Of a stretch of DNA of 64,000 nucleotides, positions 12,213-45,328 are shown in pieces. The stretch is from an uncultured Gammaproteobacteria bacterium (GTDB lineage: Bacteria > Patescibacteriota > Patescibacteriia > Magasanikbacterales > UBA922). The DNA is taken from positions 72,032 to 136,031 of the forward strand of contig CAZFTR010000002.1 of NCBI GenBank assembly GCA_964522405.1, written 5' to 3'. The notes beneath the pieces are model-generated. The model searched no databases. It worked only from the letters and a program-made list of their open reading frames with translations, and had not been told where the DNA came from. Positions within the stretch are counted from its first letter, which is position 1, and every line of letters begins with the position of its first letter. A program made the translations under genes and the position numbers.

Positions 12213-12400
12213 AGTGACGTATTCAGATTAGTTGATGATAAGAACCTTTGACCAGTTTATGAGACTGGCTTAGGGTATCCGGACTTACGGATATTCCTGA
12301 TAATCCGGATAGTGTGTGGAATATTTTATCCGTATAATCAGTATCATCCGTAAATCCGGATACCTCAACCCGGTATAATAAACACATCAGCTTATCTATA

Positions 12401-13795
12401 TTACTGGCCCATCATCCGCAGTACTACATTTACAGTTCGTAGAACAATAGACAGATCCAGAAGAAAGGATCTGTTTTTTATATAATAGAGATCATATTGC
12501 AGTTTATCCTGAGAAGTTTTCATGGTGTCTGTATAGTTTTGGTGTATAGCAGCCCATCCGGTAATTCCAGGTTTAACAATATGTCTTAGAGCGTAATAAG
12601 GCATTTTTTCTGTTAATTCTTCTACAATTTGCGGTCTCTCTGGTCTTGGCCCTATTAAGCTCAGATCTCCTTTGATAAGGTTGATAACCTGAGGAAGTTC
12701 ATCAAGTCTGGTTTTTCTAAGTATCTTTCCAATTTTAGTAATTCTTTTATCATCTTTTTGTGCAAATTCAGGCTTGCCTTCTTTTTCCGCACTACCATCA
12801 GGAGCAAGGGCATACATGGTTCTGAATTTATATATCCAGAAGATTTTTCCAAATTCACCAACACGTTCTTGTTTGAAAAAAATCTGCCCCTTTGAGCTTA
12901 GCTTAATTGATAAAGCTATAAAAGGAAAAATGCTAATTAGAAAAATTAGTAAAACAATCGCAGCCAAATAATCTAACAAGCGTCTGAATTTATTATAAAT
13001 AGCCTGTTCTTTTTTTCGGAGATTATTGAGAAACCAAGTTTCTGAAAAAATAGAAGGCGGAATTCTGCCAGTTACAATTTCATAAAATTCACTAAAATCA
13101 ATATTTTGAACCGGCCAAAATAGAAGCTCATAAAGTTCTGTTAACACACCTTCTTGAGTTTTTATTCCCGGAGCTGTCACTATTATATCAGCTTTGTGGG
13201 TGCTTATTGCCGGACGTAGAGCTTTTAAACTGCGATAGATCGATACACTTCCTGGAAAATCTGAATTTTTAATTTTACCACTGGGATCACAGATAGCAGT
13301 AATTTTATAGCCTTTTTCTGGATGTCTTTCTATTATTTGAAACAAATGCTTTATTTCTTCTTCATATCCTACAATTACTACTTTTTTTAGTAATTTTTTG
13401 CTGCCGATCAATCGATCATAGACTGCTCGCCATAGAGAGCTAAAAGAATAACCAATTAGTATATTAAGTAAGAGAATGGTTTTTGGAGTAATATCTCCCT
13501 TTGGTAATAGATATAAAAGTAATATACTCAAAATCAATGACATTATTCCAGCTTCAAGTACTCTTTTGTATGATTTTGCTGTATAGGTTGATTTAAGATC
13601 GTATAAACCATTGATGAAATTGATCAAAATCCAAAATAAAAAAAGCACAACAAAAAGACCGCTATGTTTTTGCAAGGTTTCAATATTTGGTAATTGGCCA
13701 TGTCTGATTATTAGACTTAGCCAAAAAGCCAAAATATAGAAGAGTAGGTCTCCACCTGCTAAGATTATCTGTTTAATTCTATAAACGAATTTCAT
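12401..13795 (-). CDS. polyprenyl-phosphate sugar phosphotransferase (WbaP/CpsE-type priming transferase)
   Basis: N-terminal TM helices and C-terminal bacterial sugar-transferase domain (DELPQVINLIKGDLSLIGPRP). It is convergent with the cluster. Confidence 0.8.
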   Translation of the reverse strand: MKFVYRIKQIILAGGDLLFYILAFWLSLIIRHGQLPNIETLQKHSGLFVVLFLFWILINFINGLYDLKSTYTAKSYKRVLEAGIMSLILSILLLYLLPKGDITPKTILLLNILIGYSFSSLWRAVYDRLIGSKKLLKKVVIVGYEEEIKHLFQIIERHPEKGYKITAICDPSGKIKNSDFPGSVSIYRSLKALRPAISTHKADIIVTAPGIKTQEGVLTELYELLFWPVQNIDFSEFYEIVTGRIPPSIFSETWFLNNLRKKEQAIYNKFRRLLDYLAAIVLLIFLISIFPFIALSIKLSSKGQIFFKQERVGEFGKIFWIYKFRTMYALAPDGSAEKEGKPEFAQKDDKRITKIGKILRKTRLDELPQVINLIKGDLSLIGPRPERPQIVEELTEKMPYYALRHIVKPGITGWAAIHQNYTDTMKTSQDKLQYDLYYIKNRSFLLDLSIVLRTVNVVLRMMGQ

Positions 13796-20324: not shown

Positions 20325-21359
20325 ATGAGCTCAATAAACAGTTTTTTTGATCATGCAGTCAGTAAATCTGCTTCTGATTTGCATTTGGTTGGTGGGGAAA
20401 AGCCGATGATACGCATACACGGGGTATTGCAAGAAATATCAGATGAAGTGCTTCCTGTAGAGGTGCTGGAAAAGGAAATTTTTGCGCTTTTATCAGAAGA
20501 GCAGCAAGGTAAGTTCAAAAAGGAATTAGAACTTGATTTTGGATATGAATTAAATTCCAATCGTTTTCGTATAAATCTACACAGGCAAGAAGGTAAAATT
20601 GGTTTATCAGCACGTCTTATACCTACACAAATACCAACTCCAGAGCAATTGAACTTAGAAGAGAGTATTTCTGGATTTAGTGGTCTTATGGATGGTTTGG
20701 TTTTGGTAGTGGGGCCTACAGGTCATGGAAAATCAACAACCATTGCCAGTGTCATAGAGGAAATAAATAAAACTAGAAAAACTCATATTGTTACCATAGA
20801 GGATCCCATAGAGTTTCATTTTGAAGATAAAAAAAGCCTTATAGAACAAAGAGAAGTTGGGACAGATACTAATTCATTTGCTTCAGCCCTTAAACATGTT
20901 TTGCGCCAAGATCCTAATGTTATTTTGGTGGGAGAAATGCGAGATCCGGAAACTATAGCTACAGTGCTTACTGCAGCAGAGACCGGACATCTGGTTTTTT
21001 CTACACTTCATACCAGTACAGCGGCAGAAGCAGTTGAGAGAATTGTTGATGTTTTTGAGGGTTCAAAGCAAAAACAAGTACTTATTCAGCTCAGTGCTGT
21101 ACTCCGAGGAGTGGTTGCGCAGCAATTGGTACCCACAGTTGATGGTAAGCAGGTGATAGCAAGAGAAATACTAGTTAATACACCGGCGGTTGCCAACTTA
21201 ATTCGAGCCAATAATATTTCTCAGATTTATAGTATGATTCAGACTGGCACAAAAGAAGGTATGATAACTATGGAGAATTCAATTAAAAAATTATTAAAAA
21301 AGGGGATTATAGATCGGCAGACAGCAGAACGAAGAATAATTAGACATAAAAAAGTTTAA
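20325..21359 (+). CDS. pilT: type IV pilus retraction ATPase PilT
   Basis: Walker A GPTGHGKSTT, a T2SSE-family core and the roughly 344 aa size typical of PilT. A TGnTACAAT extended -10 element lies at about 20289-20297. Confidence 0.85.
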   Translation: MSSINSFFDHAVSKSASDLHLVGGEKPMIRIHGVLQEISDEVLPVEVLEKEIFALLSEEQQGKFKKELELDFGYELNSNRFRINLHRQEGKIGLSARLIPTQIPTPEQLNLEESISGFSGLMDGLVLVVGPTGHGKSTTIASVIEEINKTRKTHIVTIEDPIEFHFEDKKSLIEQREVGTDTNSFASALKHVLRQDPNVILVGEMRDPETIATVLTAAETGHLVFSTLHTSTAAEAVERIVDVFEGSKQKQVLIQLSAVLRGVVAQQLVPTVDGKQVIAREILVNTPAVANLIRANNISQIYSMIQTGTKEGMITMENSIKKLLKKGIIDRQTAERRIIRHKKV

Positions 21360-21367
21360 TCAACAAA

Positions 21368-23149
21368 ATGAAATATCGTCGCAATAGATCAAAAAATCTA
21401 TCCAAATTTGAGATGGAAGAAATTGATCCTAGACTACGTGCCACTTCAATTATAATTATTATTGGCGCGTTTTTAATCATAGCCAGACTCTTTGTTCTTA
21501 TGGTTCTTCAGCATGGTTTTTATACTGCTTTGGCTCAGGGATCACACACCATGTATTCAAAATTATTTCCAGAAAGAGGAAATATATATGTGCAGGATTC
21601 ACGCACAGGAGATCAATTTCCAGTGGCTATTAACAAGGATATGTTTTTGATGTATGCCGATACTAGAGAGATTGATTCAGATGATCAGGCAGATAAGATT
21701 GCCACTGAACTTGGTCAAGTATTAGAGTATGATGATCAGCAAAAATTAGCATTGTATTTGCAATTAAACAAAAGAGATGATCCTTATGAGCCTTTGCTTG
21801 ATAATATGGAAGAGGATACTGTGGATATTATAAAAGCTTTGGATTTGGATGGTATTTTATTTACTAGAAATCAAGATCGATTTTATCCAGAATCAAATCT
21901 GGCATCTCATGTAATAGGTTTTTTAGGAAAAAATCAAGAGGGAGATAATGTTGGACGCTATGGAATTGAGGGTTATTGGGATGGTAAAATATCTGGACAG
22001 GGAGGATTTTTAGAGGGAGCCAGAAGTGCTAGGGGTAGATGGATACCTCTAGCTGGCAGGCTTTTTAAGCCGGCAGAAGATGGTGTGGATGTAAAATTAA
22101 CTATAGAGAGAACTGTGCAATTCAAATCATGCCAGATATTGCGTCAGGCTATGGAAGAATACGCTGCCACAAGCGCTTCTCTTTTGATTATCAATCCAAA
22201 AAATGGGGCAATTTTAGCGCTTTGTTCATTGCCGGACTTTGACTTGAACAATTATGGAGAAGTTGAAGATTCATATATTTACAATAATTCAGCAATTTTT
22301 ACGCCTTATGAGCCTGGTTCAATTTTTAAACCAATTGCTGCCGCAGCAGCGCTAAACGAAGAAGCAATAACACCACAAACTTCTTTTTATGACACAGGTT
22401 CGCGAACAGATATTTGTGATACGCCAATCAGAAATGCCAGCCAAAAAGTTTACAAAGATACAGACATGATTGGAGTAATGGAAAACTCTATAAATACAGG
22501 AATGGTTTACGTGGTAGAGGAATTAGGAAAAAATCTTTTTAGAGATTATGTTGAAAATTTTGGATTTGGGACTAAAACCGGAATTGAATTGGATACTGAA
22601 GTTTCAGGAACAATTGACTCATTGTTTATTAACAAAAAAGATCGATTGGATTGCTATACTGCCACAGCTTCATTTGGACAGGGAATTACAGTTACTCCAT
22701 TACAAATGGCAGTAGCATATTCAGCAATTGCTAATGGAGGAAAATTGGTTAAACCTTATATAGTTGAAGAACTTCGCTTTCCAAACAAGCAAGTAGAAAA
22801 AACCAGACCAAAAGAAGTTAGGCAGGTTATTACCAAGAGAGCAGCTTCACTTTTATCAGGTATGTTAGTCAAGGTTGTAGATTCAGGGCATGCCGGTAGT
22901 GCAGGTGTAGAAGGTTTTTATGTTGCCGGAAAAACCGGAACAGCTCAGATCTCAGGTCGAGGAGGGTATACAGAAGATACTAATCATTCATTTGTTGGTT
23001 TTGCTCCGGTTGATGATCCAAAATTTGTAGCCATAGTTAAATTTGAAAAACCTGAGAGAAAGTTTTCAGCAAGTACTGCAGCGCCAACTTTTGGAAAAAT
23101 TGCTAAATTTATACTAGATTATTACCAAGTAGCTCCGGGAAGAGATTGA
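21368..23149 (+). CDS. penicillin-binding protein 2 / peptidoglycan D,D-transpeptidase
   Basis: N-terminal TM anchor and a transpeptidase domain with SIFK (SxxK), SIN (SxN) and KTGT motifs. Confidence 0.8.
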   Translation: MKYRRNRSKNLSKFEMEEIDPRLRATSIIIIIGAFLIIARLFVLMVLQHGFYTALAQGSHTMYSKLFPERGNIYVQDSRTGDQFPVAINKDMFLMYADTREIDSDDQADKIATELGQVLEYDDQQKLALYLQLNKRDDPYEPLLDNMEEDTVDIIKALDLDGILFTRNQDRFYPESNLASHVIGFLGKNQEGDNVGRYGIEGYWDGKISGQGGFLEGARSARGRWIPLAGRLFKPAEDGVDVKLTIERTVQFKSCQILRQAMEEYAATSASLLIINPKNGAILALCSLPDFDLNNYGEVEDSYIYNNSAIFTPYEPGSIFKPIAAAAALNEEAITPQTSFYDTGSRTDICDTPIRNASQKVYKDTDMIGVMENSINTGMVYVVEELGKNLFRDYVENFGFGTKTGIELDTEVSGTIDSLFINKKDRLDCYTATASFGQGITVTPLQMAVAYSAIANGGKLVKPYIVEELRFPNKQVEKTRPKEVRQVITKRAASLLSGMLVKVVDSGHAGSAGVEGFYVAGKTGTAQISGRGGYTEDTNHSFVGFAPVDDPKFVAIVKFEKPERKFSASTAAPTFGKIAKFILDYYQVAPGRD

Positions 23150-23202
23150 GTTTACTATTGACTGAGAGCTTAAATTGCTGTATACTCTTGAAACTAGTAC
23201 AC

Positions 23203-23274
23203 GCCGCCATCGTCTAGTGGTTAGGACGCCGGGTTCTCATCCCGGTAACCGGGGTTCGATTCCCCGTGGCGGTA
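23203..23274 (+). tRNA. tRNA-Glu (anticodon CUC)
   Basis: Cloverleaf read by eye. Acceptor GCCGCCA pairs with TGGCGGT, D arm is TCGTCTAGTGGTTAGGAC, the anticodon loop TTCTCAT gives CTC, and the T-loop is GGTTCGATTCC. CCA is not encoded. Confidence 0.8.
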
Positions 23275-23282
23275 CAAATGAA

Positions 23283-23356
23283 GTCAGGGTAGCTCAGCTG
23301 GTTAGAGCGTCGGATTCATAACCCGGAGGTCGGGAGTTCAAGTCTCCCCCCTGACA
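23283..23356 (+). tRNA. tRNA with CAU anticodon (Met elongator or Ile2/lysidine type)
   Basis: Acceptor GTCAGGG pairs with CCCTGAC, D arm AGCTCAGCTGGTTAGAGC, anticodon loop TTCATAA, T-loop GAGTTCAAGTCTC. A hairpin-plus-T terminator follows at 23362-23393. Confidence 0.8.
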
Positions 23357-23361
23357 CAATG

Positions 23362-23393
23362 ACAAAAGAAAAGCCATTTGGCTTTTCTTTTGT
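23362..23393 (+). terminator. intrinsic terminator after the tRNA pair
   Basis: aaagaaaagcc-attt-ggcttttcttt perfect hairpin followed by T-run. Confidence 0.7.
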
Positions 23394-23466
23394 TTGACAC
23401 TATATAATTACTTTGTTAAGTTAAATTTAGGTATAAATCCCAGTCTATGGGAAAGGGGACAGCGTA

Positions 23467-24171
23467 GTGAAGACGCTTTGCAGCGTTTTTTTGCTTGCTG
23501 CTCTTTTGGTGGCTCTTGCTTGTCACTGGCTGATCGGGGTTCTAACCCCCGAGAAGCCCAGTGAGTCAATTCAGGAGGTCTTTTCAGGACTTGTTCAGCT
23601 CGATGAACAGGAACGAGAAGAGATCCTTTGGGTTGAGAGTGAGCCTGAAGAAGGGCGCCGGCAGATCAAGCCTGCCCTAACCATCCTGCTTTCAAGATCA
23701 GACGTGCAAATGTACGTTGATCAGGAAATTGACGAGTACCAACTCGTCTCTCGAGGTACTCTGTCTGTCACGGTGCGAAATATCACTGTGGCACTGCGCA
23801 ATTCTTGGGCTGTGTTTGACACCCGGGTTTTGGTGCAATTCAATGGCAAAATGTACACTAGCAGAATAGTTTTGAGGTTGGCTGAAATCAACTACGAACG
23901 GGAAAGCCGAGCAATCTATGTGGGCAAGTTCAAGATCGATCATATCAAGACACCGGCAGCGCCTTACTTCGTTGCCGAACTTCTGAGATGGCCGCTCAGT
24001 GAACTGATCACCTGGACTATCTCGAATCGTCCACTCCACTACCTGACTGAAGATGACTTGTCTGACTTGCCGGTCAAAGGTGTTTGGCCTTCGGCGATTT
24101 GGTTGGAAGATGACAAGGTAGTCGTCGGTTTGGGTGTTGCAGACGACGTCGTGAGCTCAGGCTCTCCGTAA
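23467..24171 (+). CDS. GC-rich hypothetical secreted/membrane-anchored protein (no recognisable family)
   Basis: GTG start preceded by an AAAGGGGA Shine-Dalgarno sequence, N-terminal hydrophobic helix, and about 52% GC against the roughly 33% backbone. A bidirectional terminator follows. Confidence 0.5.
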   Translation: MKTLCSVFLLAALLVALACHWLIGVLTPEKPSESIQEVFSGLVQLDEQEREEILWVESEPEEGRRQIKPALTILLSRSDVQMYVDQEIDEYQLVSRGTLSVTVRNITVALRNSWAVFDTRVLVQFNGKMYTSRIVLRLAEINYERESRAIYVGKFKIDHIKTPAAPYFVAELLRWPLSELITWTISNRPLHYLTEDDLSDLPVKGVWPSAIWLEDDKVVVGLGVADDVVSSGSP

Positions 24172-24218
24172 CCGTCGCAGTCTTGGAGGAACAGTGACGG
24201 TCATGCATCAATAAAACT

Positions 24219-24246
24219 CAGCCCCTTATAAGGGGCTGAGTTAATT
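24219..24246. terminator. bidirectional intrinsic terminator
   Basis: ctcagcccc-ttataa-ggggctgag perfect hairpin between the convergent 23467 and hup genes. Confidence 0.7.
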
Positions 24247-24262
24247 TATATTTAGTTTATCA

Positions 24263-24637
24263 TTAAAATTGAGAAGTTGTTTCTTCCTCTTCAGAATCAT
24301 CTGCAGGCGGGGGAGTTGGAGTAGGTACAGCTGCTGGAGTTGGCTTTGCACCTTTCAGTGCATCTTTTAATCCTTTTCCTGCTTTGAACTTTGGAACAGT
24401 TACAGGCGGGATTTGAATTTTTTCTGTGGGATTTTGTGGATTAACTCCTACACGTCCTGCTCTGGTTTTGGCACTAAAAGCTCCAAAACCGGCAATGTTT
24501 ACACTTCCATCAGCTTGAAGTGTGGTTGTAACTATCTCTACAAATGCCTCAATCATTGATTCTGCTTCTTTTTTTGAGACTCCTGCTTTGTCTGCTATTG
24601 CTTGACTCAATGCTGCTTTGTTCATAATATACCTCAT
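24263..24637 (-). CDS. hup: HU family DNA-binding protein with Lys/Pro/Ala-rich C-terminal tail
   Basis: MNKAALSQAIADKAGVSKKEAE...GFGAFS...RVGVNPQNPTE HU core. GGAGG sits 5 nt upstream of the ATG at 24637. Confidence 0.85.
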   Translation of the reverse strand: MRYIMNKAALSQAIADKAGVSKKEAESMIEAFVEIVTTTLQADGSVNIAGFGAFSAKTRAGRVGVNPQNPTEKIQIPPVTVPKFKAGKGLKDALKGAKPTPAAVPTPTPPPADDSEEEETTSQF

Positions 24638-24798: not shown

Positions 24799-26331
24799 TT
24801 ATTTTGCGTATTCTATAGCTCGATTTTCTCTAATTACGTTAACCCTGATTTCCCCGGGATAGGTCAGCTCATTTTCGATTTTTCGGGCAATATCTTTTGC
24901 CAAATTGTAAGCATCATAATCATCAATATCATTTGGATTAACAAATACTCTAACTTCGCGTCCAGCTTGGATAGCATAAACTTTGTCAATTCCAGGAAAA
25001 TCACTGGCTGTTTTCTCAAGCTCTTCAAGTCGCATCACATACTGTTCGTATGTATCACGTCTTGCACCGGTTCTTGAGGCTGAAATTGCGTCAGCAGCCA
25101 TAACCAGCTTTGTCAGAAGAAGTGGTGGATTGGTCTCATGATGAGTTAGGGCTACTTCTGCAATATCCTCAGAAAGTCCAAATTTATTTAGAATTTTATG
25201 ACCCACTTCAGGATGTCCACCTTGAGTTTCATGATCAATAGATTTACCAATATCATGGAAAAATCCAGCTTTTTTGGCAAGAGCCGGATCAACTCCAAGT
25301 TCTTGAGCCATAAGAGCAGAAAGATGTCCAACCTCTATGCTGTGGTTCAAAACATTTTGTCCATAACTGGTTCTGTACTTAAGTCGACCAACAATTGAAA
25401 CTAATTTTGGATCAATTCCTGTTATACCCATCTCATAAAGAGCTTCTTCTCCAGCTTTTCTAAGATCTAGTGCTAGTTCTCTTTTTGCTTCTTCAATAAA
25501 TTCTTCGATTTTTGCCGGTTGAATTCTGCCATCTTTTATAAGTTTTTCTAGGGCAAGCTGACAAACACGTCGTCTAATTGGAGAGAATCCTGAGATGATA
25601 AGCATGCCAGGAGAATCATCAATTATTAATTCACAGCCGGTTAATTTCTCAATAGTCTTAATATTTCTTCCATCTTTTCCAATTATACGACCTTTCATTT
25701 CATCACTTGGTAGATTTACTACAGTTCCAGTGTTTTCGTTAGCATGGTTTGCTGCACATCTTTGCATGCTATCAATAATTATTCGTCTGCCTTTTTCTTC
25801 ATAAAACTCAGTATTTTCTTTTTCAATTTTCATCAATCTTGATTGAAGAGCATTTTTACTGTCATCTTCAACTCGATCAATTAGAATTTCCAATGCCTGT
25901 TCTTTGTCATATCCTGAAATTTTTTGAAGTTTATCTTTTGCTTCTTCGTGCATTTCATCTACTCTTCCTTTAATTTTTCTTACTTCGTCTGCTTTTTTCT
26001 CTAGTTTTGTTCTGGTTTCTTCTACTTCTGTAATTTTTTTATCAAACATTTCTTCGCGTTTTTCAAGTCTGGCTTGAGAATTTTTGATTTCCTGTCTTCT
26101 TTGACTTTCTTCTTTTTTTGCATCATCAATAAGTTTGATAGCTTTTTCTTTTGCCTTTAAAAGAAGTTCCTTTTCTTGGTTTTTGGCTTCCATTATTTTT
26201 TTCTCTGCCAAAGCTTCAGCAGAATTTGCTTTTGCTTGTGCAAGTTGTTTGCGTACTGCATATCCAATGGCAATACCAAGAATTCCACCAAGAAGGGCAG
26301 CAAGTACAGCATAAATTAGTGTTAATTGCAT
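24799..26331 (-). CDS. rny: ribonuclease Y
   Basis: N-terminal TM helix, long coiled-coil, KH domain (GRIIGKDGRNIK) and HD domain (HHETNPP / HDIGK). Confidence 0.9.
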   Translation of the reverse strand: MQLTLIYAVLAALLGGILGIAIGYAVRKQLAQAKANSAEALAEKKIMEAKNQEKELLLKAKEKAIKLIDDAKKEESQRRQEIKNSQARLEKREEMFDKKITEVEETRTKLEKKADEVRKIKGRVDEMHEEAKDKLQKISGYDKEQALEILIDRVEDDSKNALQSRLMKIEKENTEFYEEKGRRIIIDSMQRCAANHANENTGTVVNLPSDEMKGRIIGKDGRNIKTIEKLTGCELIIDDSPGMLIISGFSPIRRRVCQLALEKLIKDGRIQPAKIEEFIEEAKRELALDLRKAGEEALYEMGITGIDPKLVSIVGRLKYRTSYGQNVLNHSIEVGHLSALMAQELGVDPALAKKAGFFHDIGKSIDHETQGGHPEVGHKILNKFGLSEDIAEVALTHHETNPPLLLTKLVMAADAISASRTGARRDTYEQYVMRLEELEKTASDFPGIDKVYAIQAGREVRVFVNPNDIDDYDAYNLAKDIARKIENELTYPGEIRVNVIRENRAIEYAK

Positions 26332-26758
26332 ATAAAAAATTTCTCAGTAACGTGAGATTTTCAAAATCTTTTTGTACGAAGAGAAAACCCAAAAAAGGGC
26401 TTATTAAGCGTCTTGTCTAATGCTAGACAAAGAGATAGAAGTTCCTAAGTCTGAAATTTGACTTATTTTTAACATATCTATAGTAATATTTACGATTGTC
26501 TTTCTGGTCTAATACGCTAGATTCGCATTCAAAGATTCTTTTCTTCACGTTAAGTTTAATTAAATCGTGAGTTTATACTATCAGAAAAGAGGTCTTTTGT
26601 CAATCATGCCAGATATTTGCTAAAATTAGCTATTTTGAGATAGTTTTAATATAGAAAAGAGCTGTGGATAATTAAAAAGACCGCTTTTAGGGGTCTGGAT
26701 ATTTTGGTTTTCGGAGCCACTGCGCACGCCGGGTAGGCGAACGCAGCAGTACCATGGA

Positions 26759-26983
26759 TCAGATCTCGATCTCCGGAATCGCCCTGTTGTGGCGGTCCGG
26801 CGGGTCGAAGGGCTCGTAGGCCGGCAGCTGGGTCGGCCTCAGCGAGGTCTGTCCTTCTTCTCCCTCGTCGTCCTCCTCTTCGTCAGTGTAGTGGCGCACC
26901 GGCTCTTCCGCAGGACGGTCAAGCCGACGAGTGTCATCACATGGGCCCGGTTCTGGTGGGCTCGGGTGATCCTCTTTGGGCAT
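26759..26983 (-). CDS. GC-rich small acidic Pro-rich protein (74 aa), unknown function
   Basis: About 62% GC. AGAGGAG Shine-Dalgarno sequence 7 nt upstream, TTGACA-17-TATCTT promoter at 27015-27043 (minus strand), and a terminator hairpin at 26673-26696. Confidence 0.4.
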   Translation of the reverse strand: MPKEDHPSPPEPGPCDDTRRLDRPAEEPVRHYTDEEEDDEGEEGQTSLRPTQLPAYEPFDPPDRHNRAIPEIEI

Positions 26984-27089
26984 ATCTGAACTCCTCTAGA
27001 CAATTCTATTATTGAAGATAGTATTTTTTATAGGTTTTGTCAATAAAAAAGAGCTGATTAAAGCTCTTTTGATAAGTTTTCCAAGAAAA

Positions 27090-27791
27090 TTATTTTATTA
27101 AAAAAGAAAAATCTTGATAATTATTTGAAGTTATTTTTTTGGGAGGTTGTGCATCTTCAACTTGGTATTTACCAATCTCAGTTCTTCTCAGTTCTTTGCA
27201 ATAGGCTCCGGTTTTAAGTTTTTGCCCAATGTCATGCGCAAGAGTTCTTATATATGTGCCTGTGCCACATTTTACTTCCAGTTTTAGATTGGGATAATTA
27301 TATTCAAGTAATTTAATATCATGAATTGTAATTTCAGATGGTTTACGTTCAACCTCTATTCCTTTTCTGGCAAGTTCATAAAGTTTTTTACCTTTTATTT
27401 TCTTGGCTGAAAACATCGGTGGTATTTGTTCTTGTGCTCCGATAAAATCCTCTAGAATTTCAAGTATCCTTTCTCGCGTTGGTTCAATTATTTCACCTGC
27501 TGTTTTTTTGATATTTCCAGTTAGATCATAGGTTTCAGTTGTTGCTCCAAGTTCAATTTCTACTGTATAGGTTTTATCTTGATTTTTAAATTGATCAATT
27601 CGTTTTGTAGCTTGTCTTCCAACCGCAACTATAAGAAGCCCGGTGGCAAAGGGGTCTAGAGTCCCGGCATGACCTATTTTTTTGATTTTTAGGACACTAC
27701 GAAGATAAGCCACAATATCATGACTGGTCCAGTCAACTGGTTTATCAATTAGCAGAAAAAATGACTCAATTGTTTTTATTTCTTGTTCCAT
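27090..27791 (-). CDS. truB: tRNA pseudouridine(55) synthase TruB
   Basis: DKPVDWTSHDIV and GHAGTLDPFATGLL catalytic-Asp motif. The start is chosen at the internal Met (MEQEIK) instead of the hydrophobic 27827 extension, and that choice is uncertain. Confidence 0.8.
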   Translation of the reverse strand: MEQEIKTIESFFLLIDKPVDWTSHDIVAYLRSVLKIKKIGHAGTLDPFATGLLIVAVGRQATKRIDQFKNQDKTYTVEIELGATTETYDLTGNIKKTAGEIIEPTRERILEILEDFIGAQEQIPPMFSAKKIKGKKLYELARKGIEVERKPSEITIHDIKLLEYNYPNLKLEVKCGTGTYIRTLAHDIGQKLKTGAYCKELRRTEIGKYQVEDAQPPKKITSNNYQDFSFLIK

Positions 27792-27816
27792 TCTAATATG
27801 ATACAATAATACCAGT

Positions 27817-28481
27817 ATGAATAGCAAAAAACAGATAAAAAATCAAGCCTGGGGGTTTGTAGATTCAAAAGGAATAGAAGTTCCCAATACTAAGCCAATT
27901 TTTGAAGATAGTAAAAAAAATCAACTAAGATTATTTTTCCATCCCGGAAAATTTTTTTATATAATTACATTAAAAAAAATAAAAAAAACCAAAAGAAGGA
28001 TAGAAATTTTTATTCAGAGCCATTTCGTATTTTGGATTTTGGCTGCGGTTCAGGATCAGTCATTGTTGATTTCAAAAAAATGTTTGGCTCTGAATCAGAA
28101 ATTATTGGAATAGATACTTCTCAGTTGCAAATAGATATTTCCAAAAAGAAAATTAAAGAATATGGAGTAAATGCAGAATTAATTTCATATGATGGAAAAC
28201 AACTTCCTTTTAGTGATAATTCTTTTGATATTGTTCACGCTAATCAAGCCTTCAAGGAAGTTGACAATATTCCATATTGTCTTGATGAATTTTATCGAGT
28301 TTTGCGAGCAGGTGGGGCAGTGACAATTTATACTGATTCCAACAAGCACATTGATAAATTATTAAAGGATTCAGGTTTTAAGATTGAAAAGAAGTATTGT
28401 ATTCCACAAAAATTGGCCTGGCTATTTGGTAGAAGTTGTGTTATATTGGCAAAATCAAAAAAAGTACTCATAGAATGTTGA
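27817..28481 (+). pseudogene. class I SAM-dependent methyltransferase (type 11) split by an apparent frameshift in a poly-A tract
   Basis: The N-terminal reading frame (27817..about 27980) and the frame holding motif I (ILDFGCGSG, from about 27915 to 28481) overlap across the runs aaaaaaaataaaaaaaacc at 27973-27990. Together they give a normal 221 aa methyltransferase. Confidence 0.5.
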
Positions 28482-31796: not shown

Positions 31797-32240
31797 ATGG
31801 AGAGGTTGCTTAACCTCTGGGACAATTTCGCCGACTGGCGCTGGACCCCGGTCATCGGGATCTTGGTGGCTCTCGTGCTCATCGTCGGCCTCATTCGCGA
31901 GGCGTCGTACATGATCGGGATGGAGCCGATCATCGGTGAGCAGTTCGCGGCCGAGGTCGGTGCTTCCTACTGTCAGGCGGCTCACGCCGACCCGGAGTGG
32001 GGAGCTGCTGAGCTCCGGGCCTGTGGCGCGCGGCTCGAGCAGCTGGTCACGCCCGAGGAGTGGGACGAGCTCAAGCCGACGATCATCTCGGTCTACTCCG
32101 AGGAATGCGTTCCTGTCAACCTCGGCCTCTGCGCTGAGATCGAGGCTCGGTACAAGACGCTCGAGGACGATCCTCATCTCGGAATGCTCGTCGTGGCCCG
32201 CGACTTCGTCTGGCTGCGACGCGGCCTGTACGGAGACTAG
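31797..32240 (+). CDS. GC-rich small membrane-anchored protein (147 aa), unknown function
   Basis: GGAGGGAAG Shine-Dalgarno sequence 6 nt upstream, one N-terminal TM helix, four Cys in the soluble part, about 60% GC. Overlapping alternative-frame ORFs were rejected. Confidence 0.5.
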   Translation: MERLLNLWDNFADWRWTPVIGILVALVLIVGLIREASYMIGMEPIIGEQFAAEVGASYCQAAHADPEWGAAELRACGARLEQLVTPEEWDELKPTIISVYSEECVPVNLGLCAEIEARYKTLEDDPHLGMLVVARDFVWLRRGLYGD

Positions 32241-32277
32241 GCCGCGAGCCAGGTTCGAACGTTCATCTCGCGTTGGT

Positions 32278-32390
32278 AGGCGAGATTCTGTTCTTTTCTT
32301 TTACGCTTTCATTGGAGACGAAGGCGTTCCCGGCGACAACTACCAGTCGCCATCGGAACTATGTTTTTTTGAAAAAGAAAATATTGACCA
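32278..32390 (+). repeat. 110-bp 3' repeat module, copy 1 (nested hairpins plus T-run; terminator-like)
   Basis: Nearly identical to 32842-32953. Contains GTTCCcGGCGACaactaccaGTCGCCatcGGAAC followed by tatgttttttt. Confidence 0.7.
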
Positions 32391-32434
32391 ATAAAAAATT
32401 GCTTTCTTAAGCATTTTTTTATTTTCTACAGGTC

Positions 32435-32534: not shown

Positions 32535-32840
32535 ATGGACTTGTCGGTTCGTTTGGATCGCTGGATTCTGGTATGGGTCATTGCTTCCGCGCTGGTCGTC
32601 TTCGGCGTGCTGGTGTTCTCCACCAACGATTGGATGGAGTTCAACAGCGTAAACGTTGAGATCGACTTCGTTGCCGTCAGACTGGCCTCGGTCGTAGACG
32701 ACAACTCCGAGCAGGAGCAGCCGACGGCCAGTCCGACCGTCTACGCTCTGCGTCCCGGAATCCGTCCCGGGATCAGGATGTGGGACCATTCGGCCCACGA
32801 GTATCGCGTGGTAGCACGACTCGACCACCCGCGCCGGTAG
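32535..32840 (+). CDS. GC-rich small membrane-anchored protein (101 aa), unknown function
   Basis: TAAGGAG Shine-Dalgarno sequence 6 nt upstream, N-terminal TM helix, PGIRPGIR repeat, about 58% GC. Confidence 0.5.
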   Translation: MDLSVRLDRWILVWVIASALVVFGVLVFSTNDWMEFNSVNVEIDFVAVRLASVVDDNSEQEQPTASPTVYALRPGIRPGIRMWDHSAHEYRVVARLDHPRR

Positions 32841-32841
32841 G

Positions 32842-32953
32842 CGGGATTCTGTTCTTTTCTTTTACGCTTTCATTGGAGACGAAGGCGTTCCCGGCGACAA
32901 CTACCAGTCGCCACCGGAACTATGTTTTTTTGAAAAAGAAAATATTGACCACA
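32842..32953 (+). repeat. 110-bp 3' repeat module, copy 2
   Basis: Direct repeat of 32278-32390 with 2 to 3 mismatches, followed by a further hairpin terminator at 32959-32982. Confidence 0.7.
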
Positions 32954-33291
32954 TAAAAAACACGTGTAAACCGTGTTTTTTTGTTTTGGTAAATTTCCTT
33001 GCCTCGCCCCGATTCTCACCGGGGCGAAGCTGGTTGGCGACCTTGGTCGCTCAGGTGATGCAGGATCCGCCGATCAGGAGACCGGCAAAAGCAAAGGCCA
33101 GCGCTACGACCCTGATCATGTGCCAGAAGTCGGTCGGCTGTCCGTAACTGCGTCCACTCCGATTGCTCAAAACTTGTCCTCCCAGACTACATTTTAGACC
33201 TTTTTTGCCTAATAGGTCAAATAAGGCTAAATCATTGACTTTTTAGGCATTTTAGAATATAATCAATCCACACTTATAAAAATTCAAATTT

Positions 33292-39274: not shown

Positions 39275-39682
39275 TCAGGGAGTCTCGCCCTCGTAGAGCT
39301 TGGGACAGTGCCGGCGCAGGCGGGCGCGCCAGCGATCATTGGCGCACTCAGCCGGGCACCAGAATCCGAGTCTGCACATCAGGCGCTCGGCCAGCCGGTA
39401 GCCGATCTCGCGGATGTCACCGACCGCCTGGGTGCCGATGAACCGGTGCGGAATCCCGCAGCGGTCGAGAAAGGTCAGTGCTCGGGTGCAGGGGTCGGTT
39501 TCTCTTCCAACCCAGCTGAACTCCTCGGAGATGTATCCGTCTTCGAGGGCGCGCGTCAGACGCGCGCCGAAGCCGAACTCGATGAGGGGTCTGGGGTTCC
39601 CTTCGACGATTTCACAGAGAACCAGGATGCCACGGTGATCTCTGTCACCGAGGATCCGCATCATGTGGCGGTATTCTGTCAT
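39275..39682 (-). CDS. GC-rich hypothetical protein (135 aa) with C-terminal Cys cluster
   Basis: About 62% GC. GGAGAAGG Shine-Dalgarno sequence, promoter TTGCAA-17/18-TAATAT on the minus strand (39710-39739), WCPAEC...HCPKL possible zinc ribbon, and a terminator hairpin at 39243-39270. Confidence 0.5.
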   Translation of the reverse strand: MTEYRHMMRILGDRDHRGILVLCEIVEGNPRPLIEFGFGARLTRALEDGYISEEFSWVGRETDPCTRALTFLDRCGIPHRFIGTQAVGDIREIGYRLAERLMCRLGFWCPAECANDRWRARLRRHCPKLYEGETP

Positions 39683-43446: not shown

Positions 43447-44985
43447 ATGAAGCTTGAACAGGGTTTGAAAAAGATAATTAGTTCCCCAAGCAAGGCATTT
43501 TCAGTGCTTTGCTTTTGTTTTCTGCTCGGAGTAGCTTTTATTTCGATTTTAGATTTTAAGCTGAAGTTTTTTCACGCCTATATTTGTTTTTTTACAATTA
43601 TTTCATCTTTGTTTTTGTTTTGGAATAAAAAACAAATAAGATTTTCATTATTTTGCGTATTTTTATTTGTTTTTGGGATTATCAGATATGCTTTAGCATT
43701 TCCAATTAATCAAAATCATATTTCTAAGTATATAGATCAGAAAATTAGTTTTATTGGAATTATTACTGCTGAACCTGATGTGCGTATGGATGGAGTTAGA
43801 TACATTATTGAAAGCAGAGAGGTTTTGGAAGAGGAATCAAGTAAGAAATCAAAAGGACGAGTATATATAAAAGAAAAACTGTATCCGCGATACAGCTATG
43901 GTGATAAATTAGAAATTTTTTGCAGAATCCGGGAACCAGAACCAATTGAGGCAGATCCAGGATCAAAAGATAGAGATTTCCGCTATGATCGTTATCTGGC
44001 GCGTTTTGGAGTATTTGCAAATTGCCAAAATCCAAAAATAGAGGTTTTGGAAGCGAGTCGGGGGAATATGATCATGAGATCAATACTTTCTTTAAAAGAA
44101 ATAGTAGCCCGGAAAATAAACCAACTTTGGCATGAGCCCCACGCTAGTTTTATGGCAGGCTTGCTCTATGGTTATCGTGGAGGACTTGGAAGCTTGAATG
44201 AGCTTTTTAGTAGAACAGGAGTAACTCATATTGTTGCGATCTCTGGATACAATATTACAATTATTTCTACGATTTTGATCACAGTTTGTGTGCGACTTTT
44301 GATCCCTAGAAAAAAGGCTTTTTGGTTGATTGTTATTGGAATAATAGTTTTTCTTATTTTTGCCGGGCTTAGCGCCTCAGTTGTCCGAGCTGGAATTATG
44401 GGAATAATTGTTTTGATTGCAAAGCAGCTTGGTAGAGCAAGTCGAGTAGGAAATGTTATGTTACTTACAGCAGTTGTTATGACTCTGCACAATCCCTTTA
44501 TTCTTATTTGGGATGCAGGATTTCAATTATCTTTTATTTCAACTCTTGGGCTTGTTTATCTGACAAAATTTGTAGAAAAACCCTTTGAGAAATTACCGGA
44601 AATATTGGGAATAAAAGAATCAGTCCTTTCAACTTTGGCTGCTATTATTTCAACATTGCCGCTTATACTTTATCAGTTTGGGAGATTATCGATTGTCGCT
44701 CCAATTGTAAATGTGTTGATACTCTGGATTATTCCCTGGATTATGATTGTTGGTTTTTTTGGAGTTGTGGTTGGTTTTGTTTTTAAACCGATTGCAGTTT
44801 TACTTGCTTGGATTTCTCATGCAGGCATGGCATATATAATTTTGATTGTTAAATTTTTTGCTGGATTTAGTTTTGCAGCTGTGGATATGCGAGTTCCGAT
44901 TTGGTTTATGTTGGCTTCATACTTTGCAATGATTTGGTTTGTGATCAAATCAAAGAAATTAGAAAATAAAAAAAGCTCTGGATGA
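43447..44985 (+). CDS. comEC: ComEC/Rec2-family DNA internalisation channel (membrane competence domain)
   Basis: Polytopic membrane protein with DUF4131-like N-terminus and a Competence domain (GVTHIVAISGYNITI). Confidence 0.75.
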   Translation: MKLEQGLKKIISSPSKAFSVLCFCFLLGVAFISILDFKLKFFHAYICFFTIISSLFLFWNKKQIRFSLFCVFLFVFGIIRYALAFPINQNHISKYIDQKISFIGIITAEPDVRMDGVRYIIESREVLEEESSKKSKGRVYIKEKLYPRYSYGDKLEIFCRIREPEPIEADPGSKDRDFRYDRYLARFGVFANCQNPKIEVLEASRGNMIMRSILSLKEIVARKINQLWHEPHASFMAGLLYGYRGGLGSLNELFSRTGVTHIVAISGYNITIISTILITVCVRLLIPRKKAFWLIVIGIIVFLIFAGLSASVVRAGIMGIIVLIAKQLGRASRVGNVMLLTAVVMTLHNPFILIWDAGFQLSFISTLGLVYLTKFVEKPFEKLPEILGIKESVLSTLAAIISTLPLILYQFGRLSIVAPIVNVLILWIIPWIMIVGFFGVVVGFVFKPIAVLLAWISHAGMAYIILIVKFFAGFSFAAVDMRVPIWFMLASYFAMIWFVIKSKKLENKKSSG

Positions 44986-45328
44986 GCTTGGAATTAGTGC
45001 AGGAGTGATCTCGGGGCTCGCAGTGGCGCACTTCCGACCTTTTCTCGGTATGGGCGGCGGCTAATTGCCAGCCGGCCTCACCGTAAGGTGTTGGATAGTA
45101 CGCCACGCGAGCCCTCTAGTCAGATGCCGTGCATCTCGTTCTCCCCCTAATAGCCGCATGTGGCCCAGACGTAGTTTGGTTTCGTTGCCGTTTTGCCTCC
45201 GTGGTTTTGAAGTGGAGGTCTTGGCTCGAATTGGGCCGTCGTTGATTCTTCTGCTCGGCTATAAGCAGAAGAACCCGACGCAAATATTAAATCATAAAAA
45301 AGATTTTTTGTCAAGATTATCACTCTCC
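44986..45328. ncRNA. 343-bp GC-rich non-coding island (about 58% GC), candidate structured RNA or inserted element
   Basis: No SD-led ORF. It contains a perfect 10-bp hairpin TTCTTCTGCT/AGCAGAAGAA at 45246-45273 and other stems. It lies between comEC and the ComEC-type MBL gene. Confidence 0.3.

Follow-up and report, generated by a model that had tools for sequence, protein, structure and literature searches.

A GC-rich orphan gene, probably acquired recently, in the tRNA-hup spacer of one Candidatus Magasanikbacteria lineage

How did a gene with the base composition of some other genome come to stand between a pair of transfer RNA (tRNA) genes and hup? We addressed this question in a 64,000-nucleotide (nt) stretch of contig CAZFTR010000002.1, hereafter the window, whose guanine-plus-cytosine (GC) content is 36% overall and whose positions serve as coordinates throughout. 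The gene is an open reading frame (ORF) of 234 codons, here called ORF234, that an initial annotation of the sequence had singled out. We put at roughly 0.6 the probability that ORF234 is a recent horizontally acquired coding gene, carried on a fragment of ~0.77 kb into the tRNA-hup spacer of one Candidatus Magasanikbacteria lineage and encoding an exported product. The gene and the segment that carries it are placed as follows:

23441-24212, plus strand: GC-rich segment of foreign composition, 773 nt, GC 0.51 (fine GC profile)
23467-24171, plus strand: ORF234 coding sequence, GTG start, 234 amino acids, TAA stop (sequence and translation)

The initial annotation had described the frame as about 52% GC and well above its neighbours. 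The elevation is borne out, although the exact value is lower, at 0.504 for the coding sequence and 0.51 for the segment. GC contents at the first, second and third codon positions (GC1, GC2 and GC3) are 0.58, 0.38 and 0.55, and the last of these stands out (z = +11.7) from the 0.240 ± 0.026 of 46 window genes. Codon adaptation, which had been proposed as a check, gives the same picture of foreign composition, since the codon adaptation index of ORF234, referenced to the 46 window genes, is 0.444 vs 0.714 ± 0.028 (z = -9.6). A donor GC content of ~51% is obtained from GC1 and GC3 alike with the position-specific GC regressions of Muto-Osawa/Lawrence-Ochman, reportedly those of Lawrence and Ochman from 1997. 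Because the two positions agree on this value, long amelioration is argued against and the acquisition was probably recent.

ORF234 is a genuine protein-coding sequence. A G-rich first and a GC-poor second codon position are seen in all six 39-codon blocks, with GC2 the lowest each time; the frame contains a single stop, whereas each of the five alternative frames has 7-15; and its stop-free run of 243 codons was reached in 4 of 1000 dinucleotide-preserving shuffles. We regard it as coding because the periodicity extends to every block, stops are avoided and the ORF is longer than the shuffles would produce. An antisense ORF of 113 amino acids gave no match in Pfam.

We then compared the window with loci surrounding rny and pbp2 in Candidatus Magasanikbacteria (Patescibacteria/candidate phyla radiation, CPR), 66 of them from genomes and 31 from metagenomes. 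The RNase Y encoded in the window has its relatives in this group, the closest match having 75% amino acid identity. Many metagenome-assembled genome records titled 'uncultured Gammaproteobacteria bacterium' (loci L002, L005, L006, L013 and others) encode an RNase Y that is 66-75% identical and show the same CPR synteny; the taxonomy in such titles appears to be a placeholder or a mistake. The syntenic set comprised 20 loci from GTDB and three from metagenomes (L072, L073 and L083); L072 duplicates the L027 scaffold, which makes 22 distinct genomes. Their conserved gene order is rny-hup-[tRNA-Met, tRNA-Glu]-pbp2-pilT, and a relative of ORF234 was encoded in none of the 22 by tblastn. No paralogue was found in the window, and no relative was detected, even at E ≤ 1, in ~1.2 Mb of the relatives' loci plus L001 and L068-L070. 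The hup-pbp2 interval in the 20 genome loci is mostly 380-750 nt long and, where it is that short, contains the two tRNAs only. In the closest loci, L083 (PBP2 72% identical) and L073, just one bidirectional terminator comes after tRNA-Met, and the hup stop is reached within tens of bases; in the window, 905 nt separate tRNA-Met from hup. Given its absence from all 22 syntenic relatives, ORF234 is therefore a lineage-specific insertion. This comparison of the orthologous interval was the one suggested by the initial annotation, and no contrary orthologue turned up in low-GC relatives.

The same interval varies in other relatives, where it holds unrelated extra genes of host composition (Mur-ligase-like, GIY-YIG-like and others). 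Because unrelated inserted genes vary among relatives in this way, we consider the tRNA-hup interval a hotspot, for which the tRNA-Glu/tRNA-Met pair is a conserved marker, present in the pbp2-hup interval of 22 relatives. A tRNA-linked integration hotspot had been suspected, and the variable interval agrees with that suspicion; its integrative side was not supported, as no duplication of a tRNA end was found at ORF234 and no integrase or transposase was recognised in the ORF list of the window, in which ~40 other long ORFs went without a family scan. At L021 (11600-12570), a different GC-rich (0.59) orphan ORF of ~93 amino acids lies on the minus strand between tRNA-Met and tRNA-Glu, preceded by TTGACA-17-TACTAT as promoter and GGGAGG as ribosome-binding site, and a ~200-nt duplication of a terminator and the tRNA-Glu 3' end (12289-12306 vs 12491-12508) resembles an att-type footprint.

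ORF234 is also an orphan in far larger collections. A word-indexed search of 5.8 billion clusters and an exhaustive phmmer search of 1.84 billion representatives each returned ORF234 itself only, and there was no match in phages, in plasmids (tblastn), in JGI metagenomes or in IMG/VR (pattern and tblastn). Searches of Pfam, NCBIfam, PHROGs, PADLOC and PDB sequences yielded nothing significant, so that the earlier remark that no family could be recognised applies to all of these as well as to the cluster and phmmer searches.

What kind of protein does ORF234 encode? Its sole hydrophobic segment spans residues ~3-27, directly after Met-Lys, with a Kyte-Doolittle mean of 2.5 over 19 residues (7-25), and a single-sequence AlphaFold2 model places a helix at residues 2-26 with a predicted local distance difference test (pLDDT) score of 85-88. 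A single N-terminal hydrophobic segment after a basic residue is what is looked for in Sec export or N-terminal anchoring, and the description of ORF234 as a signal-peptide protein is consistent with this profile. The N-terminus reads MK-TLCSVFLLAALLV-ALA-C19, in which A-L-A before Cys19 is a possible signal-peptidase I site. Residues 27-66 form a 40-residue acidic linker (pI 4.15), and the remaining 168 residues (67-234) are acidic and predicted to be beta-rich with one helix at ~165-186, the latter from a low-confidence model. Judging from these sequence features, the product is most likely an exported or N-terminally anchored extracytoplasmic protein.

The best Pfam match was DUF1439/YceB (PF07273), a family of putative lipid-binding lipoproteins, at E = 0.022 and 15.0 bits vs a gathering threshold of 25.9, with residues 78-199 of ORF234 aligned to profile positions 4-135 of 152 (132/152). 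ORF234 resembles this family in its N-terminal export signal, in Cys19 and, in a low-confidence model, in the order beta-meander, helix, two C-terminal strands, but differs from it in its additional 40-residue acidic linker, its poor lipobox and its score below the gathering threshold. The lead was not supported on closer comparison: BLASTP against E. coli YceB gave E = 4.7, and hhalign gave a probability of 0.36% in the same register, using a 12-sequence YceB alignment that is shallow (members ≥ 81% identical, with only close relatives recovered), so that the lead is weakened rather than refuted. In Foldseek, YceB (3l6i_A) ranked 50th, at E = 4.8 and a root-mean-square deviation of 13.5 Å, from a low-pLDDT model.

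The surroundings of ORF234 bear on how it could have arrived and how it might be expressed, and contain the following features:

20325-21359: pilT-like gene, upstream neighbour
21368-23149: PBP2-like gene, upstream neighbour
23158-23186, plus strand: promoter of the tRNA pair, TTGACT-17-TATACT (promoter scan)
23203-23275, plus strand: tRNA-Glu(CTC) (ARAGORN; Rfam tRNA)
23283-23357, plus strand: tRNA-Met(CAT) (ARAGORN; Rfam tRNA, the pair scoring 64.6 and 66.4 bits)
23362-23393, plus strand: terminator hairpin of the tRNA operon, ACAAAAGAAAAGCCA / TGGCTTTTCTTTTGT, 15-bp arms (inverted repeat 100% complementary; fold)
23394-23440, plus strand: AT-rich spacer upstream of ORF234 (read from the sequence)
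23450-23459, plus strand: Shine-Dalgarno-like GGAAAGGGGA, 7 nt before the GTG and inside the GC-rich segment
24167-24205, plus strand: GC-rich imperfect hairpin in the foreign segment, overlapping the ORF234 stop codon (fold)
24215-24242, both strands: 14-bp palindrome AACTCAGCCCCTTA/TAAGGGGCTGAGTT, 100% complementary and terminator-like on both strands (inverted-repeat search, terminator scan and fold)
24263-24637, minus strand: hup (HU), convergent to ORF234
24799-26331: RNase Y gene (rny), downstream neighbour
27090-27827: truB-like gene, downstream neighbour
43447-44985: ComEC gene

The initial annotation read the layout of the gene correctly: the frame is GTG-initiated and preceded by a Shine-Dalgarno sequence, given as AAAGGGGA, it comes directly after the two tRNA genes, starting 110 nt past the pair, and a perfect bidirectional hairpin terminator closes the unit. 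The foreign segment hugs this one gene, beginning 26 nt before its start and ending 41 nt past its stop, and includes the ribosome-binding site, the ORF and the 3' hairpin at 24167-24205, which may be the donor gene's own; the AT-rich upstream spacer lies outside it. The palindrome that follows, 20 nt from the hup stop, is a bidirectional intrinsic terminator common to ORF234 and to the convergent hup, and the 98-nt 3' region folds with z = -6.2 and -5.3 on its two strands. On the other side, the tRNA-operon terminator separates the tRNAs from ORF234, and L083 has a hairpin at the equivalent position directly after tRNA-Met. A weak candidate promoter may be read in the AT-rich spacer, with a TATAAAT -10 at 23432-23438 whose -35 is poor; between this TATAAAT and the TTGACA at 23393-23398 there are 33 nt. 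The neighbours (pilT-like, PBP2-like, hup, RNase Y and truB-like) are core genes. The HU protein has a Pro/Ala/Glu-rich C-terminal tail of ~40 residues beyond its conserved 82-residue core, which varies among relatives, and gene callers differ on its start (124 vs 120 amino acids).

Based on these features, we propose that a gene-sized fragment of ~0.77 kb, with ribosome-binding site, ORF and 3' hairpin, entered the spacer between the tRNA pair and hup. Entry would probably have occurred by natural transformation or by illegitimate recombination, and the simplest route would be transformation and then illegitimate recombination at this terminator-rich spacer. The window encodes comEC and pilT, and there is no att repeat, no attC site and no recognised integrase in the ORF list. 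Saccharibacteria have been shown to be naturally competent (PMC10633639), and groundwater Patescibacteria are documented to exchange both single genes and islands horizontally (PMC12455944). Transcription could start at a weak local promoter or result from read-through of the tRNA terminator, and would end at the shared bidirectional terminator. The N-terminal segment would direct the product to the Sec pathway, after which it would be secreted, or tethered by the acidic linker to the outside of the membrane, with the beta-rich domain displayed on the surface. The role of ORF234 would then most likely be an accessory one at the envelope or surface, such as host-cell or phage interaction or lipid binding of the YceB type.

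Several points weigh against recent acquisition as we describe it. The case for horizontal transfer is built on composition and on absence from relatives, because neither a donor nor a homologue was found. The nearest relative is distant (RNase Y 75% and PBP2 72% identical in amino acid sequence), and the age of the insertion can therefore not be bounded from synteny. An empty-site variant was not seen in the population: exact-protein look-ups gave only contigs of the same population that were 100% identical, and look-ups with the 124-residue HU and the 593-residue PBP2 matched no record. The flanks of ORF234 contain no att-like repeat, tRNA-end direct repeat, target duplication or tandem repeat that would reveal a mechanism, and no sigma-70-type promoter was called upstream in the promoter scan, so that expression is a presumption. 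As to function, the single-sequence AlphaFold2 models were unusable (pLDDT 42.6 for the full length and 38.0 for residues 60-234), and the Foldseek search against the PDB that the initial annotation had recommended gave nothing below E = 1. Lipoprotein status is doubtful because the lipobox is poor, its -3/-2 residues (A and L) being non-canonical relative to L-[AS]-[GA]-C, and hydrophobic residues run on past Cys19. Finally, acquisition leaves the structured 5' half of the ORF234 mRNA (z -5.0) unaccounted for.

Since the initial annotation had likened ORF234 to other GC-rich cassettes in the window, we examined these as well:

26759-26983, minus strand: cassette b, 74 amino acids, GC3 0.71, promoter matching 10 of 12 consensus positions
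31797-32240, plus strand: cassette c, 147 amino acids, GC3 0.84, 11-of-12 promoter with extended -10
32535-32840, plus strand: cassette d, 101 amino acids, GC3 0.78, 11-of-12 promoter with extended -10
39275-39682, minus strand: cassette f, 135 amino acids, GC3 0.77
~33000-33200 and ~44990-45290: two shorter GC-rich patches (GC profile)

The likeness applies to composition and layout but not to sequence or to donor GC. Cassettes b, c, d and f have GC contents of 0.55-0.62, GC3 values of 0.71-0.84 and codon adaptation z-scores of -13 to -16, and their inferred donor GC is ~59-69% vs ~51% for ORF234. No sequence is shared between ORF234 and the cassettes, or among the cassettes themselves except for a repeat of c and d. 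Cassettes c and d both start with a membrane-spanning segment. None of the four matched Pfam, PHROGs or PADLOC; no homologue of the 135-residue cassette f was found, and the two window cassettes put through exhaustive searches both came out as orphans. The c/d repeat is direct, ~130 nt long and ~96-98% identical (32269-32398 and 32830-32960), lies past the stops of the two cassettes and holds a GGCGAC...GTCGCC hairpin and a T-run; it occurs only twice in the window and gave no match in IMG/VR. This arrangement points to a duplicated 3' scaffold common to c and d, with an unrelated ORF in each.

Among the alternatives to an acquired, functional gene, the one that survives best is that ORF234 is inert captured DNA, that is, a recent fragment whose ORF is intact because it is young, which is not usefully expressed and which will decay. 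We consider this unlikely but take it seriously. The promoter scan gave nothing upstream, and the tRNA operon is separated from ORF234 by a strong terminator; purifying selection cannot be shown when there are no homologues, and the identity of all population copies gives no evidence of constraint; the lack of amelioration at GC1 and GC3 fits a very recent arrival. On the other hand, the fragment is trimmed to one complete gene with its ribosome-binding site and 3' hairpin and shares a terminator with hup, and the insertion is present in three runs from apparently two studies. Each sister cassette likewise consists of one complete ORF, and three have a near-consensus promoter of native type in front, a pattern that points to selection of expressed units.

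We also considered whether ORF234 is what is left of a site-specific integrative element after loss of the recombinase, the element being either an island targeted to tRNA genes or an integron cassette. Its position next to two tRNA genes, the att-like duplication at the L021 orphan ORF between the same tRNAs, and the gene-sized unit with an imperfect hairpin right after the stop, as in an integron cassette, all fit such an origin. However, no tRNA-end direct repeat flanks ORF234, and outside the cassette regions the window has no other GC-rich ORF of ≥ 110 amino acids, with the ~40 other long ORFs unscanned. We rejected the reading of the 3' hairpin as an attC site in that its 39 nt are too short and contain no R''/R' (RYYYAAC/GTTRRRY) core sites; nor is the unit part of an array, and no integrase is in the ORF list. 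An integrative remnant is accordingly improbable.

A still smaller probability is kept for a role at the RNA level, namely a structured RNA element in which the long ORF is secondary or incidental, and it is the sense-strand folding excess that leads us to keep it. The coding sequence folds with z = -5.0 on the sense strand, a value that 0 of 60 shuffles reached, vs -2.3 on the antisense strand, and 16 core-gene controls ranged from +0.8 to -3.3. The excess is concentrated at 23450-23850 of the plus strand, in the 5' half of ORF234, where 150-nt windows give z of -3 to -4.9, and is largely missing from the antisense strand. GC-rich islands in AT-rich genomes are often RNA genes. In contrast, Rfam at gathering score matched only the two tRNAs in the region and gave only chance-level matches at E up to 1; periodicity and stop avoidance persist over all 705 nt, in a single frame, and the ORF length is significant; and the Shine-Dalgarno sequence and the signal-peptide-like N-terminus are at the right places. 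Inside ORF234, the hairpin CGGGGTTCTAACCCCCG at 23535-23551 is shaped like a T-arm, with a stem of 5 bp and a loop of 7 nt. Its identity to the T-arm of tRNA-Glu is 82%, and a weak tRNA-like match (mascRNA, E = 0.74) falls at the same place; the hairpin could be the relic of a tRNA-derived attachment site, and we judged both the hairpin and the match to be due to chance.

The abrupt change in GC and the lack of a homologue in the lineage would also be seen in an assembly chimera or a contaminant joined to a CPR contig, but this is effectively refuted, as ORF234 and both of its junctions were assembled at 100% identity in independent contigs from SRR8146440, SRR8146441 and SRR31802803, and AT-rich host sequence resumes on both sides within a few tens of bases. 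The identical 234-residue product is on record from both NCBI, where the contig has 169,945 nt, and Logan. Logan contigs L104, L106 and L105 (two runs) break inside hup at ~24396-24428, within ~30 nt of one another, which could mark a strain-level variant or a graph branch. That ORF234 has long been a conserved gene of the core or of the lineage, and owes its composition to a mere GC bias, is just as hard to credit, for its intactness fits and nothing beyond that does, whereas it is absent from the 22 syntenic relatives and ~1.2 Mb of related loci and has no homologue in 15 billion proteins.

If ORF234 is an acquired gene, as we favour, to which known class does it belong? Phage morons, whose products in many cases act at the membrane or surface, are one point of comparison. 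The passage of PMC3594210 that defines them describes an extra gene between neighbours that are adjacent in relatives, with deviant composition and its own terminator. Like the morons, independent transcription cassettes first defined in phages HK97 and HK022, ORF234 lies between features that are adjacent in relatives, differs from them in composition and has a factor-independent terminator, to which an export signal is added. Unlike them, it is found not in a phage or prophage but in a core chromosomal region (pilT, pbp2, tRNAs, hup, rny), has no match in PHROGs or in the phage and IMG/VR collections, and lacks a convincing promoter of its own, whereas cassettes b, c and d have one. We have not filed it as a moron because it is outside a phage and its own promoter is unproven.

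ORF234 resembles the islets and single-gene transfers of Patescibacteria (PMC12455944) in its anomalous composition, its restriction to one lineage and its variable, tRNA-adjacent interval. It differs in comprising only ~0.8 kb and one gene, with no att duplication, no identifiable donor and no integrase in the ORF list, and its GC deviates upward in a genome of 36% GC. The description that suits it best is thus that of a small, horizontally gained islet with an orphan gene at a tRNA-linked hotspot. As a donor-derived islet it represents a known kind of event with an ordinary mechanism; the protein family, which has no relatives, is new.

GC-rich islands, defined as ≥ 0.11 above the local median GC, are not confined to the window but occur in about half of the related loci. 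Most consist of one ORF whose GC3 is 0.6-0.9, in a few cases preceded by a TTGACA-17-TAnnnT promoter, and most are unrelated between genomes; 8 of the 9 island ORFs tested lack a Pfam family, the ninth being Band_7/SPFH. The truB-rny spacer (26332-27089 in the window, where it holds cassette b) lies upstream of rny and is a second recurrent site of lineage-specific GC-rich ORFs in many Magasanikbacteria, mostly unrelated to one another and without Pfam families, in these and other loci:

L006, 7727-9689: truB-rny spacer
L012, 8631-9723: truB-rny spacer
L024, 8954-9614: truB-rny spacer
L028, 9228-9527: truB-rny spacer
L050, 9359-9631: truB-rny spacer
L053, 9243-9672: truB-rny spacer

Long GC-rich genes with GC3 of 0.73-0.91 also occur in relatives, against a background of 37-41% GC (L035 6264-7142, minus strand; L008 1492-3156; L027 697-2679; L006 1874-3124). 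The L035 gene has a promoter of consensus type, and its product is a Band_7/SPFH protein in which ASLGC resembles a lipobox; the gain of genes with upward-deviating GC is therefore not limited to orphans. Our literature search found no description of GC-rich islands in Magasanikbacteria or CPR.

These islands raise a broader reading that we hold to be rather unlikely as it stands, in which Magasanikbacteria, and perhaps CPR bacteria at large, capture gene-sized fragments from GC-rich donors and fix them at hotspots as single-gene 'chromosomal morons', each with promoter and terminator, that provide these minimal epibionts with surface or accessory proteins of fast turnover. It draws on the presence of at least five such cassettes in the window and of GC-rich islands in about half of the related loci. 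Uptake could proceed, for example, by the competence machinery, and the hotspots would include the tRNA-hup and truB-rny spacers. The donors might be unsampled hosts of higher GC, neighbours or their viruses, and the products would be mostly orphans, some of them anchored at the N-terminus.

Taken alone, the horizontal gain of ORF234 at a tRNA-linked hotspot is an ordinary event, of a kind already reported in large numbers for Patescibacteria (PMC12455944), and its product is one further orphan protein in a phylum that abounds in them. The most worthwhile part is the recurrence of GC-rich orphan cassettes across Magasanikbacteria, as short islands of 50-62% GC with one ORF each, several behind near-consensus promoters of host type and almost all without homologues. 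If a specific capture route or a shared role, such as surface variation in epibiotic CPR bacteria, is indeed behind this pattern, it would bear on how tiny genomes gain new functions, and the cassettes would be candidates for host interaction.

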